Positions 114-6,321 of a stretch of DNA of 6,321 bases are shown one piece after another. The DNA is from a virus (taxonomy: Duplodnaviria; Heunggongvirae; Uroviricota; Caudoviricetes). The notes under the pieces are model-generated. The model did not search any database. It worked only from the letters and a program-made list of their open reading frames with translations, and was not told the origin of the DNA. Where the stretch lies: IMG/VR virus record IMGVR_UViG_2681813201_000017; one strand, given 5' to 3'. Each line of letters starts with the position of its first letter. Positions within the stretch are counted from its first letter, which is position 1. The translations under genes and the position numbers were made by a program.

Positions 114-686
114 TTACACAGACTGACGTGATGCCAGTTGCGCACTTTTACGCGAAAAAATCATGTTCTGCGCAGGGGTGAATTTTTCACGGCTGTCATC
201 CACAGAAGCCGCGTCAGGCCTGAATCCGATAGTCGTTAAAATGTCGCTATCCTGTGCGGAATAATTAATTTTTTCACCCTTCGCAAGCCAGGACAGGAGG
301 GCTTCACGCAGGGCATCTGTGGCACGCTGTATGGCACAGTTTCGGGCAATGGCCGTCAGCTCACTGTAGCCCATCAGCTCCGGTGCCAGTGCCGCCGCCA
401 GTGCTGTGCCGTGCTGCTGCATAAAATCATTCAGCCGGTCGCGGATGCTGATGTGCTGAACGGCTTCATGCGAACGAATATAACGACCGGCGGCCTGATT
501 CACCTGCCATTTTCTGACTTCGATAATATTGCGTAATTCGTCCAGGCGACTGACGTTTCTGCCTTCTCCTGACAGAAGCCGCAGGTATTCCTGTTCGGCC
601 GCTGCCAGCTCATTTTTGCGTTGCAGCCATGCTGCTTTGTTATTCTGACAGGTGTCAAAGGCCTGCTGTAAGGCTGTGCTTTCCAT
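114..686 (-). CDS. psu: Psu, polarity suppression protein (Rho antagonist / capsid decoration) of P4-type satellites, 190 aa
   Basis: ORF of exactly 190 aa as in P4 Psu; N-terminus MESTALQQAFDTCQNNKAAW matches my recollection of P4 Psu; last gene of the sid-delta-psu operon order; AGAGA-type RBS upstream of ATG at 686. Confidence 0.9.
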   Translation of the reverse strand: MESTALQQAFDTCQNNKAAWLQRKNELAAAEQEYLRLLSGEGRNVSRLDELRNIIEVRKWQVNQAAGRYIRSHEAVQHISIRDRLNDFMQQHGTALAAALAPELMGYSELTAIARNCAIQRATDALREALLSWLAKGEKINYSAQDSDILTTIGFRPDAASVDDSREKFTPAQNMIFSRKSAQLASRQSV

Positions 687-759: not shown

Positions 760-1260
760 TCATTCCAGACGCAGCGAATATGATTGTGTTTTTAACCGTA
801 CTGGCGGCAGTTCCTGTTTTTCATGCAGGCGTTCTGCCAGTTCGTCCGGCGTGACCGGGCGGACAATGAAGCGGGTGATGGTCTGAAGCGTTTTAAACAC
901 CAGACCACAGCCCGGATCCGTGCACACATAAAAACGCTCGGTGACTTCCTGAGACAGACGCCGCGATGTTCTTGACAGTGCAAGGCCTTTACATCTCCGA
1001 CAACAATATCCGGTAACAAGCATTCTTTTCGGGCGTTTCATACTGCCGGAGGCTGACGTCAGTGAATCGCGGTATCTCTGTTTGCCTGAAATGTATTCCA
1101 TTCCTGAATCTTTACAGTCAGAGAAAAAGCTTTCACTCGCTTCAAATGTCGCAGAGCAATAAATATTCCGGCACTGTGCAATCATTATCTTGGTGCCATC
1201 GTCCATGAAATGTGCGCGACGGGTGTGAGCAACATGTCCACACGACGGGCAGTAAATCAT
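760..1260 (-). CDS. delta: Delta, late-gene transcriptional activator with two tandem Ogr-type zinc-finger domains, 166 aa
   Basis: Start chosen at ATG 1260 (MIYCPSCGH...) rather than the ORF-track start at 1317, because this ATG overlaps the sid stop (ATGA at 1257-1260) and gives the 166 aa expected for P4 Delta. Two Cys4 modules are visible (CPSCGH...CRNIYC and CRRC...CTDPGC), as in Ogr/Delta. Confidence 0.85.
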   Translation of the reverse strand: MIYCPSCGHVAHTRRAHFMDDGTKIMIAQCRNIYCSATFEASESFFSDCKDSGMEYISGKQRYRDSLTSASGSMKRPKRMLVTGYCCRRCKGLALSRTSRRLSQEVTERFYVCTDPGCGLVFKTLQTITRFIVRPVTPDELAERLHEKQELPPVRLKTQSYSLRLE

Positions 1261-1991
1261 GACAGCAGTCCTCTGGCCTTCAGCTCTGCTCCCTGCTGGT
1301 CTATTTTGTCCTGCCACACCTTGCGCTGTGCCGGTGTGCCTGCCACCTCATAATCCATGTGCGGAAGTGTTGCCGCTGACAGTCCGGTCAGCCGGAGAAC
1401 CGGCTCACCGGTGAGGCTGATTTGCATCTGTTTAATTTTCTGTTCCAGCGATGATTTCACCTGCTGCATGACAGCCTTTTCCGGTGCGACATAGCCCTGA
1501 TGGCCGGTGGTGTTGGCGAGCGGATTTTCCTGTACCAGGATGCTCAGATGCATTGCCCGGACAAGCGCCTCACAGGTTTCATTCAGGGCGTGTTCCAGCT
1601 CATGCTCTGCATACAGACTCAGAAGATGATGATGTGCCTTCCGGTAGGCGGTGGCCGTGCTGTCACACGCCCCTTTCAGGCGTTCACGTTCAAAATTCAG
1701 CACCACGGCCAGATTGTCATATTCCTGTACCAGCTCCCGGCGTGCCACGCGCTCAATGTGGCGCTGTTTCAGCTCGTCGCTCAGGACACCACCGGCTGCA
1801 CGAAAGGCCGTGCGCCAGTCGTCAGCATCGTTTCCGTCGGCCTGCGTCAGCGCATTTTTTTCCTGCTCTGCCCGTTCAATGGCCGTGACGGTCTCATCCA
1901 TCAGGCGGGCGTTCTCAAGATGAGCGACTCTGGCCTTTTCCAGTTGTGCCAGTGCGGGTTGCAGATATTCAGGGATGGTGTTGTCAGACAT
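1257..1991 (-). CDS. sid: Sid, external scaffold protein that redirects helper capsid assembly to small size, 244 aa
   Basis: Start chosen at ATG 1991 (MSDNTIPEYLQ...) with GAGGAG RBS 2001-2006 on the - strand, giving 244 aa as in P4 Sid; the ORF track extends 6 codons further upstream (2009) without an RBS. Stop overlaps delta start. Confidence 0.9.
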   Translation of the reverse strand: MSDNTIPEYLQPALAQLEKARVAHLENARLMDETVTAIERAEQEKNALTQADGNDADDWRTAFRAAGGVLSDELKQRHIERVARRELVQEYDNLAVVLNFERERLKGACDSTATAYRKAHHHLLSLYAEHELEHALNETCEALVRAMHLSILVQENPLANTTGHQGYVAPEKAVMQQVKSSLEQKIKQMQISLTGEPVLRLTGLSAATLPHMDYEVAGTPAQRKVWQDKIDQQGAELKARGLLS

Positions 1992-2025
1992 TTTCCGGCT
2001 CCTCGTCACTTCAGGTTAAGAAAAT

Positions 2026-2043
2026 TGTGACGTACACCGGACA
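2026..2043. promoter_or_regulatory. TGT-N12-ACA dyad, candidate Ogr/Delta activator site of a late promoter
   Basis: TGT at 2026-2028, 12-nt spacer, ACA at 2041-2043, centre about 2034.5. Lies 35-50 bp upstream of the sid ATG (1991) on the other strand. Orientation and assignment (sid promoter versus a divergent rightward late promoter) cannot be settled from sequence alone. Confidence 0.4.
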
Positions 2044-2063
2044 ACAACACGACGCATTGCAGA

Positions 2064-2081
2064 TGTGCCAGCCCTGACACA
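2064..2081. promoter_or_regulatory. Second TGT-N12-ACA dyad, candidate Delta/Ogr site for the sid promoter
   Basis: TGT 2064-2066, 12-nt spacer, ACA 2079-2081, centre about 2073.5. If the site is centred near -55 as in P2/P4 late promoters, the leftward transcript would start near 2019, leaving a leader of about 28 nt before the sid ATG at 1991. Confidence 0.45.
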
Positions 2082-2262: not shown

Positions 2263-2317
2263 ACGATCCCATTATGCCGCGAGTCAATGGTAGCTCAGGC
2301 GGGGCAGCCTCCGGGCT

Positions 2318-2345
2318 GGCCGGTATTCTTCGAGGCCGGTATTCT
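2318..2345 (+). repeat. Tandem direct repeat GGCCGGTATTCT x2 (2318-2329 and 2334-2345) in the leader of the rightward operon
   Basis: Two perfect 12-nt copies 16 nt apart, separated by tcga. Position corresponds to the immunity region of P4-type elements, where short sequences pair with the CI antisense RNA; assignment is inference. Confidence 0.35.
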
Positions 2346-2358
2346 CACCCCCGTCTGG

Positions 2359-2400
2359 GCTATCGCCATCGAGCGTGAGAACTCCGGCGATAGCAGTTAT
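2359..2400 (+). promoter_or_regulatory. Hairpin (9-bp stem, 18-nt loop) followed by a U-rich stretch; candidate attenuator or terminator upstream of the first rightward ORF
   Basis: gctatcgcc (2359-2367) pairs with ggcgatagc (2386-2394); followed by cagttatttgct. It sits immediately before the AAGGAGG RBS at 2411-2417. Confidence 0.3.
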
Positions 2401-2424
2401 TTGCTACTCGAAGGAGGCTGCCTT

Positions 2425-2622
2425 ATGGCTACAACCCTTACCCCCTCACACCCTGAATTTGTCTTTGTGTTTGCGGCTGTCCGTCGCGCAGACCGTCATC
2501 CCCGTATCTGTATGCTTCGCACCGTCGCCGGTGATGAACGCAGTGCCCGCCGTTCCCTTGTCCGTGACTATGTGCTCTCCCTTGCTGCCCGTCTGCCGGT
2601 GGTGGAGGTGTCCCGTGCGTAA
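2425..2622 (+). CDS. Small 65-aa protein, first ORF of the rightward (early/left-operon-like) transcription unit; occupies the position of kil in P4
   Basis: ATG 2425 preceded by strong RBS AAGGAGG (2411-2417, 7-nt spacing); stop TAA 2620-2622 overlaps the GTG start of the next ORF. Identity with P4 Kil is inferred from position only. Confidence 0.45.
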
Positions 2623-2902
2623 TAAAAAAGCCCCTCAGACCGTCTCAGCGCGTCATGACGCCCGTGAACACCTCAGCATTGAGGCTTACCATAAGCTCAA
2701 CCGCGCCAGCGCCGTATCCCAGTTTGTTGGGGGTGATTTGATTCACCGTGAACTCTCCGGCCTGCATCAGCTCTACATTCCGCATATTTTCAGCTACCTG
2801 AATGAAGATATTGATTTTGTGCTGAATGAACTGAAAGCCAAAGGCCTGTGCCGCGATTTTCTCGCCCAGCAGAAAGACCGGGGAGACAGGACGCATGTTT
2901 GA
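2615..2902 (+). CDS. 95-aa protein at the position of P4 Epsilon (helper prophage derepression); start at GTG
   Basis: GTG 2615 preceded by GGAGG (2604-2608, 6-nt spacing). The longer ORF-track version (from 2375) has an N-terminal part that overlaps the 65-aa ORF in another frame and lacks an RBS. Stop TGA 2900-2902 overlaps the ATG of the next ORF. Size and synteny fit Epsilon; I cannot verify the sequence. Confidence 0.5.
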
Positions 2903-3350
2903 TTTTCCCCAGCCCGGTGAGATTTACCGTTCTGCCGGTTTTCCCGATGTGGCCGTGGTCGGCATTCTGGAAGACGGTATTCCGTGGGAAATGCCGTACC
3001 GCTGCCCGGAAATTGTCTGGAACCCGTACCGCCGTAAATTCAGTATCCTTGTGCGTATCCTCGCTGACGGACGCACCACAGACATCCCGCTGGGGCGTTT
3101 TCTGCGGGAATTTACCTGTGACCGTCCTGACCTGTTTAAACGCAGCCCCGTAAACCGGCATGCGGTACTGAAAGAAATGGCCGGAGACCCGGAATTACAG
3201 AAATGGCGGGAAAAATATCTGGATATTTACCCGCAGGACACTGTTCCGGTCAGCCGGGCAGCACCGGTGGCGCGGGAATGGCGGGAAATTCCCCGCACGG
3301 AGCCTGACCCGGAAACCACCCCGGATAACAGTTACCGCAATTATCTGTAA
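2895..3350 (+). CDS. 151-aa hypothetical protein (size and position of P4 orf151), function unknown
   Basis: ATG 2895 with GGAG 2882-2885 upstream; start overlaps the stop of the preceding ORF (ATGTTTGA); uninterrupted 151 codons in a compactly packed operon. Confidence 0.7.
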   Translation: MFDFPQPGEIYRSAGFPDVAVVGILEDGIPWEMPYRCPEIVWNPYRRKFSILVRILADGRTTDIPLGRFLREFTCDRPDLFKRSPVNRHAVLKEMAGDPELQKWREKYLDIYPQDTVPVSRAAPVAREWREIPRTEPDPETTPDNSYRNYL

Positions 3351-3378
3351 TTAAAAAACGACCCCCGAAAAATTAAAT

Positions 3379-3404
3379 GTGCGTATTCGCGCAGGGATAC
3401 GCAC
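3379..3404. promoter_or_regulatory. Inverted repeat / hairpin in the intergenic region between the 151-aa and 106-aa ORFs
   Basis: gtgcgtat (3379-3386) pairs with atacgcac (3397-3404), 8-bp stem and 10-nt loop. There is no T-run on the + strand; on the - strand it is followed by atttaatttttcggggg, so as a terminator it is oriented against the operon. Confidence 0.35.
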
Positions 3405-3423
3405 GTCTTCAGGAGACGCAGAT

Positions 3424-3489
3424 ATGCCTTATCAGTTAATGCAACCGGCACGGAATGCAGTCATCTGTCACAGGGAGAAAAGCAAATGA
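3424..3489 (+). CDS. Candidate 21-codon upstream ORF / leader peptide ([21 protein letters not shown]) coupled to the 106-aa ORF
   Basis: ATG 3424 preceded by AGGAG (3411-3415, 8-nt spacing); stop TGA 3487-3489 overlaps the ATG 3486-3488 of the next ORF (ATGA). Confidence 0.25.
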
Positions 3490-3806
3490 AAACACCCTTA
3501 CCGCCCGTCTTACGCGCTGCCCTTTACCGTCGCGCTGTCGCCTGTGCCTGGCTGACCGTGTGCGAACGTCAGCACCGCTACCCGCATCTCACCCTTGAGT
3601 CACTGGAGGCGGCCATCGCCGCTGAGCTGGAAGGCTTTTATCTGCGCCAGCACGGTGAGGAAAAAGGGCGTCAGATAGCCTGTGCCCTGCTGGAAGATTT
3701 AATGGAATCCGGCCCCCTGAAGGCCGCGCCGTCGCTGTCCTTTCTCGGGCTGGTTGTGATGGATGAACTCTGTGCCCGTCACATAAAAGCGCCGGTACTG
3801 CACTGA
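3486..3806 (+). CDS. 106-aa hypothetical protein immediately upstream of alpha, function unknown
   Basis: ATG 3486 with GGGAGA upstream; ends 14 nt before the alpha start; same strand and compact operon arrangement. Confidence 0.65.
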
Positions 3807-3820
3807 AGGAGAACAACACC

Positions 3821-6154
3821 ATGAAAATGAACGTAACCGCCACCGTCAGCCATGCGCTCGGCCACTGGCCGCGTATTCTCCCGGCGCTGGGGATTCAGGT
3901 GCTGAAAAACCGTCATCAGCCCTGTCCGGTCTGTGGCGGGAGTGACCGCTTCCGTTTTGATGACAGGGAGGGGCGCGGCACCTGGTACTGCAATCAGTGT
4001 GGTGCCGGTGACGGCCTGAAACTGGTTGAAAAGGTGTTTGGTGTTTCCCCGTCCGACGCGGCCGCAAAGGTGGCTGCCGTGACCGGCAGCCTGCCCACGG
4101 CTGACCCGGCAGTGACGGCCGCCGCCGGCGCTGAAACAGACGCTGCCCGGAAGAACGCCGCCGCACTGGCACAAACCCTGATGGCAAAAACCCGTCCCGG
4201 AACCGGTAACGCCTACCTGACCCGCAAGGGCTTTCCCGGCCGGGAATGCCGGATGCTGACCGGCACACACAGAGCCGGTGGCGTGAGCTGGCGCGCCGGT
4301 GACCTTGTGGTGCCACTGTATGACGACAGCGGCGAACTGGTTAACCTTCAGTTAATCAGTGCTGACGGCCGTAAGCGCACCCTGAAAGGCGGACAGGTCA
4401 GGGGCACCTGTCACACCCTTGAAGGACAGAATCAGGCCGGAAAACGTCTGTGGATAGCGGAGGGATACGCGACCGCACTTACCGTACATCACCTGACCGG
4501 TGAAACGGTGATGGTGGCGCTTTCTTCCGTGAACCTCCTTTCTCTGGCCAGCCTTGCCCGGCAGAAGCATCCGGCCTGTCAGATTGTCCTTGCCGCAGAC
4601 CGTGACCTCAGCGGTGACGGCCAGAAAAAAGCCGCCGCAGCCGCAGATGCGTGTGAGGGCGTTGTTGCCCTGCCGCCGGTCTTCGGTGACTGGAATGATG
4701 CCTTCACGCAGTACGGCGGGGAGGCCACCCGTAAGGCCATTTATGATGCCATCCGGCCACCGGCTGAAAGCCCGTTCGATACCATGAGCGAAGCGGAGTT
4801 TTCCGCCATGAGTACCAGCGAAAAGGCCATGCGTATCTATGAGCATTACGGCGAGGCGCTCGCGGTCGATGCCAACGGCCAGCTTCTGTCCCGCTATGAA
4901 AATGGTGTCTGGAAGGTGCTGCCGCCACAGGACTTTGCCCGGGATGTGGCCGGGCTGTTTCAGCGTCTGCGCGCGCCGTTCTCCTCCGGGAAGGTGGCCT
5001 CCGTGGTGGACACCCTGAAGCTGATTATTCCGCAGCAGGAAGCCCCCTCCCGCCGCCTGATTGGCTTTCGTAACGGCGTGCTCGACACGCAGAACGGCAC
5101 GTTCCACCCGCACAGTCCGTCACACTGGATGCGCACCCTGTGCGATGTGGATTTCACCCCGCCGGTGGACGGTGAAACGCTGGAGACCCACGCCCCCGCG
5201 TTCTGGCGCTGGCTTGACCGTGCCGCCGGTGGCCGTGCGGAAAAACGCGACGTGATTCTGGCCGCACTGTTTATGGTGCTGGCAAACCGCTACGACTGGC
5301 AGCTCTTTCTGGAGGTGACCGGTCCCGGCGGCAGCGGCAAAAGTATCATGGCCGAAATAGCCACCCTGCTGGCCGGGGAGGATAACGCCACGTCGGCCAC
5401 CATCGAGACGCTGGAATCCCCGCGTGAACGTGCCGCGTTAACTGGCTTCTCACTGATACGCCTGCCGGACCAGGAAAAATGGAGCGGCGACGGAGCCGGA
5501 CTCAAGGCCATCACCGGCGGCGATGCGGTGTCCGTTGACCCGAAATACCGGGATGCGTACTCCACGCATATCCCGGCGGTGATTCTGGCCGTGAACAATA
5601 ACCCGATGCGCTTCACCGACCGCAGCGGCGGCGTGTCACGCCGGCGGGTGATTATTCACTTCCCGGAACAGATAGCCCCGCAGGAGCGCGACCCGCAGCT
5701 TAAGGACAAAATCACCCGCGAGCTGGCGGTCATCGTGCGTCACCTGATGCAGAAGTTCAGCGACCCGATGCTCGCCCGGTCACTGCTTCAGTCCCAGCAG
5801 AACTCAGACGAGGCACTGAACATCAAACGGGATGCCGACCCGACGTTTGATTTTATCGGCTATCTGGAAACCCTGCCGCAGACCAGCGGCATGTATATGG
5901 GGAACGCCAGTATCATCCCGCGTAATTACCGTAAATACCTCTATCACGCCTATCTGGCCTACATGGAGGCAAACGGCTACCGGAATGTACTCAGTCTGAA
6001 AATGTTCGGGCTGGGGCTGCCGGTGATGCTGAAGGAATACGGACTGAATTACGAGAAGCGCCATACCAAACAGGGGATACAGACCAACCTGACGCTGAAA
6101 GAGGAAAGCTACGGCGACTGGCTGCCAAAATGTGACGACCCTGCAACAGCCTGA
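3821..6154 (+). CDS. alpha: Alpha, bifunctional DNA primase-helicase and origin-binding replication protein of P4-type satellites, 777 aa
   Basis: 777-aa ORF with AAGGAG RBS (3806-3811). N-terminal zinc-ribbon CPVCGG...CNQCG (nt 3923-4000), primase motif EGYATA (nt 4460-4477), Walker A GPGGSGKS (nt 5321-5344). N-terminus MKMNVTATVSHALGHWPRILPALG matches my recollection of P4 Alpha. Confidence 0.95.
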   Translation: MKMNVTATVSHALGHWPRILPALGIQVLKNRHQPCPVCGGSDRFRFDDREGRGTWYCNQCGAGDGLKLVEKVFGVSPSDAAAKVAAVTGSLPTADPAVTAAAGAETDAARKNAAALAQTLMAKTRPGTGNAYLTRKGFPGRECRMLTGTHRAGGVSWRAGDLVVPLYDDSGELVNLQLISADGRKRTLKGGQVRGTCHTLEGQNQAGKRLWIAEGYATALTVHHLTGETVMVALSSVNLLSLASLARQKHPACQIVLAADRDLSGDGQKKAAAAADACEGVVALPPVFGDWNDAFTQYGGEATRKAIYDAIRPPAESPFDTMSEAEFSAMSTSEKAMRIYEHYGEALAVDANGQLLSRYENGVWKVLPPQDFARDVAGLFQRLRAPFSSGKVASVVDTLKLIIPQQEAPSRRLIGFRNGVLDTQNGTFHPHSPSHWMRTLCDVDFTPPVDGETLETHAPAFWRWLDRAAGGRAEKRDVILAALFMVLANRYDWQLFLEVTGPGGSGKSIMAEIATLLAGEDNATSATIETLESPRERAALTGFSLIRLPDQEKWSGDGAGLKAITGGDAVSVDPKYRDAYSTHIPAVILAVNNNPMRFTDRSGGVSRRRVIIHFPEQIAPQERDPQLKDKITRELAVIVRHLMQKFSDPMLARSLLQSQQNSDEALNIKRDADPTFDFIGYLETLPQTSGMYMGNASIIPRNYRKYLYHAYLAYMEANGYRNVLSLKMFGLGLPVMLKEYGLNYEKRHTKQGIQTNLTLKEESYGDWLPKCDDPATA

Positions 6155-6186: not shown

Positions 6187-6204
6187 ATCCCTGAATTCCC
6201 CGAA

Positions 6205-6296
6205 GGTGAACAATCCACTGTTCACCCTTCACCGTATATTCACCCGTTATCACACTGAAATTAAAAGAGAAAAACGAAAGGTGAACAGTGTGAACA
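6205..6296. repeat. Cluster of TGTTCACC-type iterons in both orientations downstream of alpha (crr-like cis replication region)
   Basis: GGTGAACA 6205-6212 (inverted), TGTTCACC 6219-6226, degenerate cCTTCACC 6226-6233 and TaTTCACC 6237-6244, GGTGAACA 6280-6287, tGTGAACA 6289-6296. The first two form an inverted pair GGTGAACA-atccac-TGTTCACC. An A8/T6 tract follows at 6304-6320. Confidence 0.6.
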
Positions 6297-6321
6297 ATCA
6301 AATCAAAAAAAACTTTTTTCT

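Follow-up and report, generated by a model that had tools for sequence, protein, structure and literature searches.

Two TGT-N12-ACA dyads in the satellite phage P4 late promoter Psid: a predicted activator site and a putative modulating site within the promoter core

Upstream of sid in a 6,321-nucleotide stretch of viral DNA (the window, by which we mean the whole stretch analysed), two exact copies of the dyad TGT-N12-ACA stand close together. PMC3931495 gives TGT-N12-ACA as the P2 late-promoter consensus, and the pair raises the question of which promoter each copy serves: both may belong to leftward transcription of sid, or one may belong to a rightward promoter that faces away from it. 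Here, we find that positions 2026–2081 (56 bp) very probably constitute the regulatory core of the P4 late promoter Psid, driving sid–delta–psu from a distal activator site and carrying a putative proximal modulating site.

The window, its late operon and its identity with P4

BLAST against phage records identified the window as satellite phage P4, with ~98.7% identity to NC_001609; segments 1–2187 and 2270–5199 align to NC_001609/X51522 at 98.6% and 98.8%, respectively. The genes sid, delta and psu follow one another in tandem on the minus strand, immediately downstream of the dyad promoter (Table 1), sid being the first and psu the last gene of the late operon sid–delta–psu under its control. 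Within Delta, Pfam PF04606 is matched in two stretches (E = 5.6e-22), corresponding to two Ogr_Delta zinc-finger domains. The rightward side follows the P4 order of CI RNA region, epsilon, orf151, orf106 and alpha. A program-made list of open reading frames starts sid at a GTG at 2009 (250 aa), a start that we rejected as lying only 8 nt past the predicted transcription start; the real start is the P4-annotated ATG, which has a GAGGAG Shine–Dalgarno sequence.

The 191 bp upstream of sid (1992–2182), bounded by the sid ATG on one side and the first origin iterons on the other and including both dyads, align to reference P4 with 100% identity, so that the feature is the P4 late promoter Psid itself. 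Work of the 1980s and 1990s dissected Psid, whose activator site has become a textbook example in the P2/P4 system. On the strength of this alignment, we regard the dyad pair as a correct re-reading of an already known promoter and not as a new feature. The sequence-only reading that preceded this analysis had held the tandem arrangement worth mapping as something new, for which there is no need given a promoter identical to the long-studied P4 Psid; its assignment of the dyads to the Ogr/Delta type and to the sid late-promoter region is borne out.

To the right of Psid, the alpha-binding type-1 iterons TGTTCACC are present as two origin copies at 2160–2179, with the crr copies at 6200–6300 after alpha. 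As the two origin copies lie directly to its right, Psid adjoins the replication origin. Positions 2188–2269 consist of 75 Ns (2188–2262) followed by 7 bases (2263–2269), where P4 has ~865 bp containing four of the six origin type-1 iterons, the type-2 repeats, PLL, vis/orf88, PLE and the 5′ part of the cI region. In E. coli genomes with matches on both sides of the run, this place is likewise longer, by ~700–720 bp, and the N run is probably an assembly gap or masked stretch, not a true deletion. Beyond it, the Rfam C4 antisense RNA family RF01695 is matched on the plus strand at 2283–2370 (74.3 bits, E = 1.2e-13). This match is the P4 CI immunity RNA and lies inside an open reading frame called ‘cI gene product’ in older records; among phage records, those of Klebsiella, Yersinia (PY54) and Enterobacter match the same ~110 bp at 75–84%.

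Dyad geometry and the core promoter

A pattern search found both exact dyads that had been reported upstream of sid, TGTGACGTACACCGGACA at 2026–2043 (centre 2034.5) and TGTGCCAGCCCTGACACA at 2064–2081 (centre 2072.5), with 38 bp between their centres and a 20-bp gap between the dyads; the earlier figures of 2073.5 for the distal centre and 39 bp for the spacing are corrected accordingly. The pattern occurs three times in the 6.3-kb window against 1.2–1.3 expected, and at least three matches arise in 13–14% of shuffles, so the count by itself is unremarkable. The clustering is remarkable: two exact matches no more than 60 bp apart appear in only 1.9% of 5000 dinucleotide shuffles (P ~0.02), and for the 196-bp spacer from sid to the replication origin the expectation is only 0.037 matches. 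The third exact dyad, TGTGACGACCCTGCAACA at 6131–6148, overlaps the final codons of alpha, immediately ahead of the alpha terminator and crr, and is also found in reference P4 with one interior difference. We considered it as a promoter site and set it aside, as it has no promoter context and fits the roughly one match expected by chance.

Read on the sid strand, the promoter is laid out as TGTGTCAGGGCTGGCACA, a 20-nt gap, TGTCCGGTGTACGTCACAAT, TTTCTT and then A, the predicted start (Table 1). This start, derived from the position of the -10 and the dyad-to-start distances of the P2 late promoters, is located 26 nt upstream of the sid ATG. The position of a -35 element reads TCGTGT, which agrees with the consensus at 2/6 bases, and a sigma-70 consensus scan of 1900–2500 on both strands gave no promoter match; such a scan is uninformative on activator-dependent promoters and still argues against a rightward sigma-70 promoter. 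A weak -10 hexamer with no consensus -35 is as expected for an activator-dependent promoter. In place of the -35 region stands a conserved block, TCGTGTTGTTGT, which includes the left TGT of the proximal dyad and whose TCG and TGTTGT are invariant in 11 clade representatives.

Table 1. Coordinates of the late operon and of the elements of its promoter in the window. Negative positions count from the predicted transcription start.
Feature	Position	Strand	Basis or remark
psu	114–686	-	190 aa; Pfam PF07455, E = 1.3e-88; P4 annotation
delta	760–1260	-	166 aa; P4 annotation and Pfam PF04606
sid	1257–1991	-	244 aa; 98% identity to P4 Sid protein; P4 annotation
sid start codon ATG	1991	-	As annotated in P4
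sid Shine–Dalgarno GAGGAG	1999–2004	-	Sequence
Predicted Psid start, A	2017	-	7 nt past the -10; dyad-to-start distances of P2 late promoters
-10-like hexamer CACAAT	2024–2029	-	Only -10-like hexamer; CAGAAT in divergent relatives
Proximal dyad TGTCCGGTGTACGTCACA	2026–2043	- (sid strand)	-9 to -26, centre -17.5; exact match
Conserved block TCGTGTTGTTGT	2041–2052	-	-24 to -35; in place of a -35 region
Distal dyad TGTGTCAGGGCTGGCACA	2064–2081	- (sid strand)	-47 to -64, centre -55.5; exact match

The distal dyad lies 52 bp upstream of CACAAT, and its centre at -55.5 agrees with the expectation, voiced from the sequence, of a site about 55 bp upstream of a leftward sid start. It also agrees with the P2 record, which annotates four late starts together with their activator sites; the TGT-N12 centres there lie 54.5–57.5 bp upstream, at -54.5 (PO), -56.5 (PV) and -57.5 (PF). 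[quoted passage not shown] Judged by its sequence and placement, the distal dyad is thus identified as the Delta/Ogr activator site of Psid. The proximal dyad shares three bases with the -10 hexamer and overlaps the core promoter, as had been proposed earlier.

Relatives of Psid were collected by alignment of Sid homologues, which gave 22 loci from a set with one genome per species and 80 viral contigs. The upstream region was readable in 100 loci and reduced to 42 distinct sequences, the window's own copy included. Sid identity across the compared loci is 57–100%, with 11 clade representatives at 57–67% to P4, and the genera comprise Escherichia, Klebsiella, Raoultella, Citrobacter, Enterobacter, Mangrovibacter and others. 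Throughout the 42 sequences, the TGT and ACA of the distal dyad are invariant as its central 4–6 nt vary, giving the consensus TGTG[CT]CA-N4-T[GA][CG]CACA with invariant half-sites TGTG.CA and CACA, and the distance from the start of the distal dyad to the CA[CG]AAT hexamer is 52 bp in every one. Columns without variation among the 11 clade representatives comprise the distal half-sites, GCAA, TCG, TGTTGT, CA.AAT and the predicted +1, A 2017. These alignments are strong evidence for a conserved promoter built on a -55 activator site.

Two intermediate Sid variants, P0059 and P0070 (76–82% identity), and the Delta variant P0086 (84% identical) were considered and rejected: they belong to P4-type loci bearing frameshifts or indels, which probably come from noisy assemblies or decaying copies and add no phylogenetic contrast. 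Separately, a near-identical P4 element (L004, URND01000141.1; Sid 99%) occupies a 6.8-kb contig with the full origin region and no Ns; its bin is labelled ‘uncultured Clostridiales bacterium’, and the contig is most likely Escherichia-derived contamination of that bin. Further upstream in the alignment, a block at 2101–2127 (about -84 to -110) shows, among divergent P4-like satellites, a conservation nearly equal to that of the distal dyad. On the sid strand it reads TTTCCTG.GACCTTT..CTGGC..GCC, and a direct repeat, CAGGAAAA, occurs at 2108–2115 and 2121–2128 with a spacing of 13 bp. This block may bind Vis, IHF or some other factor, or else belong to the origin.

The role of the proximal dyad

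In P4-type loci, the proximal half-sites show zero substitutions among the 34 upstream variants of 75 loci. The divergent relatives carry TGT-N12-AGA in the same register in 20/20 readable cases, because their -10 hexamer is CAGAAT where the P4 type has CACAAT, and in all 42 distinct sequences an element TGT-N12-A[CG]A starts 14 bp before the hexamer. Each end of the proximal dyad falls on an element that may be conserved for reasons of its own, the TGTTGT block on one side and the -10 hexamer on the other, so that conservation by itself cannot be ascribed to Delta binding, and the exactness of the dyad in P4 could be partly fortuitous. Other properties point towards a protein-binding site. 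As at the distal dyad, the interior differs from clade to clade between ends held in register; TGTTGTCCGGT, which forms the left half, agrees in 10/11 positions with the left half of the PV activator site of P2, TGTTGTCTGGT; and two of the relatives (L020 and L021) carry exactly the PV version. In footprinting attributed to Julien and Calendar in 1995, Delta reportedly protected a region near -55 in each of the six P2/P4 late promoters and, in Psid, a second site centred at -18. The exact TGT-N12-ACA centred at -17.5 here matches that reported -18 site. We therefore take the proximal dyad to be a second, weaker Delta-type site that most likely modulates Psid rather than activating it.

Several other readings have to be weighed against this one. 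The distal dyad may alone be functional, with the proximal dyad a by-product of the TGTTGT block and the -10 hexamer in which ACA arose by chance in the P4 lineage, and the composition of the element fits this: the left TGT sits within the invariant TGTTGT block, the right half over the invariant CA.AAT, and the 20/20 readable divergent loci with CAGAAT as their -10 have AGA and not ACA. Around one true site, moreover, the chance that another exact match falls no more than 60 bp away in either direction is ~0.03, which is not overwhelming. Set against this are the reported Delta footprint at -18, the likeness of the left half to the PV activator site, and a TGT...A[CG]A register that is kept exactly around a free interior as it is at the distal, protein-binding dyad. 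The third -10 position also matters here, as C and G should be equally acceptable there for sigma-70 recognition. On balance, we consider the by-product explanation unlikely and favour the modulating site. In a further reading, itself unlikely, the exact dyad would be derived in the P4/phiR73-type lineage by a single G-to-C change that turned CAGAAT into CACAAT and yielded a full Delta operator capping the feedback, a proposal that goes together with a 5-of-6 element being ancestral to all P4-like sid promoters. Were it true, natural variation at one base would tune how strongly each P4-like satellite limits its own late expression.

It is also conceivable that the second exact dyad co-evolved with the duplication of Delta, with a single tandem Delta engaging the two sites. 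According to PMC11718236, the parts of P4 Delta matched by shorter homologues are residues 1–40 and 120–160, and among the loci compared here 71/73 P4-type loci, with their two dyads, encode a tandem Delta, and 20/20 divergent loci, with one, encode a single-domain Delta of 67–87 aa. All of this amounts to a single phylogenetic contrast, however; a protein database search found no independent tandem-Delta lineage beyond the P4 clade (matches 84–100% identical). Three loci (L090, L099 and L109) combine a P4-type promoter and both exact dyads with an 81-aa single-domain Delta, so the link between second dyad and tandem Delta is not obligatory; P4-type sid and promoter joined to such a Delta show recombination between sid and delta. 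In addition, 38 bp is ~3.6 helical turns, which places the two dyads on different DNA faces and argues against simple cooperative bridging, and a tandem Delta is more simply understood as a covalent dimer that serves a single dyad. Such co-evolution is therefore very unlikely. Least probable is the rightward option, in which the proximal dyad would be the -55 activator site of a divergent late promoter starting at ~2089–2090. A palindromic dyad could in principle work in both directions, and the divergent P2 promoters PP and PO do share one site. At the required distance, however, neither dyad has a -10-like hexamer on its right (45–50 bp for the proximal one): 2077–2084 reads ACACAGGA, and the scan of 1900–2500 gave no promoter-like match on either strand. 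To the right there is no open reading frame, only origin iterons, so that both the second -10 and the downstream gene of a PP/PO-like shared site are missing; the ACA half-site is not conserved in relatives; and P4 already has a rightward late promoter, PLL, with its own exact dyad further right. Of the two roles that the proximal dyad was first given, modulation of sid from a second site is thus the tenable one, and the divergent rightward late promoter is unsupported.

With the proximal dyad read as a modulating site, the observations can be assembled into a simple model. The promoter's identity to P4 Psid, its geometry, its conservation in relatives and the presence of the activator gene are observed; the actual binding, start site, alpha contact and role of the proximal site are drawn from the literature or by reasoning. 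Delta of P4, or Ogr of a P2-type helper, would bind the distal dyad, and the bound activator would recruit sigma-70 RNA polymerase through the alpha C-terminal domain, as at P2 late promoters; with a weak -10 and no usable -35, recruitment of polymerase by the activator is expected. Transcription would start at ~2017 on the minus strand and read sid, delta and psu. Delta would thereby activate the operon that contains its own gene, creating positive feedback. We envision that the proximal dyad, inside the core, modulates this loop; as delta lies in the Psid-driven operon, the simplest model is one in which its occupancy when Delta is abundant limits the positive feedback.

The discovery value of these results is small, the element being the reference P4 sid promoter that is already known. 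Nevertheless, the present check confirms that a genuine regulatory element, one already characterised by experiment, was located together with its geometry from the letters alone, and it removes the divergent-promoter alternative. Position 2027, as a single-base natural variant between the P4 type and the other clades, offers a handle on the role of the second site.

Comparison with known late promoters

Psid of reference P4 (NC_001609/X51522, at about 9493–9582 of the record) shows no promoter differences from the window: dyads, -10, leader and Shine–Dalgarno sequence are all identical, and the same operon sid–delta–psu follows downstream. Relative to the P4 genome as a whole, the window differs by scattered substitutions outside the promoter (~1.3%) and by the N run to the right.

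The P2 late promoters PP/PO, PV and PF resemble Psid in having a dyad ~55 bp upstream, a weak -10, no -35 and an activator of the Ogr/Delta type. Their sites (NC_001895) are imperfect, with TGT-N12-CCA or CAA, whereas the distal dyad of Psid is exact; the inexactness of the P2 activator sites indicates that exactness is not needed for function. No exact second dyad was seen inside the P2 late core promoters of this record, whereas Psid has one at -17.5. PLL, the P4 rightward late promoter upstream of vis/orf88, lies ~400 bp to the right of Psid and is missing from the window through the N run. It carries an exact dyad, TGTAAGACAGCCTGAACA (2475–2492 of locus L001), ~55 bp before a CAAAAT -10, but has no exact second dyad at -18, its nearest one-mismatch match lying 24 bp and not 14 bp before the -10.

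Further parallels come from the divergent P4-like satellites of Klebsiella, Raoultella, Citrobacter, Enterobacter, Mangrovibacter and others. They have the same spacings, the exact distal dyad, GCAA, TCG, TGTTGT, CA.AAT and the +1 A; unlike P4, they combine a proximal TGT-N12-AGA and a CAGAAT -10 with a single-domain Delta of 67–87 aa. Taken together, the only new element to emerge is comparative: in these alignments of P4-like satellites, the -55 dyad and all spacings are invariant, and the element at -18 is a full dyad only in promoters of the P4/phiR73 type.
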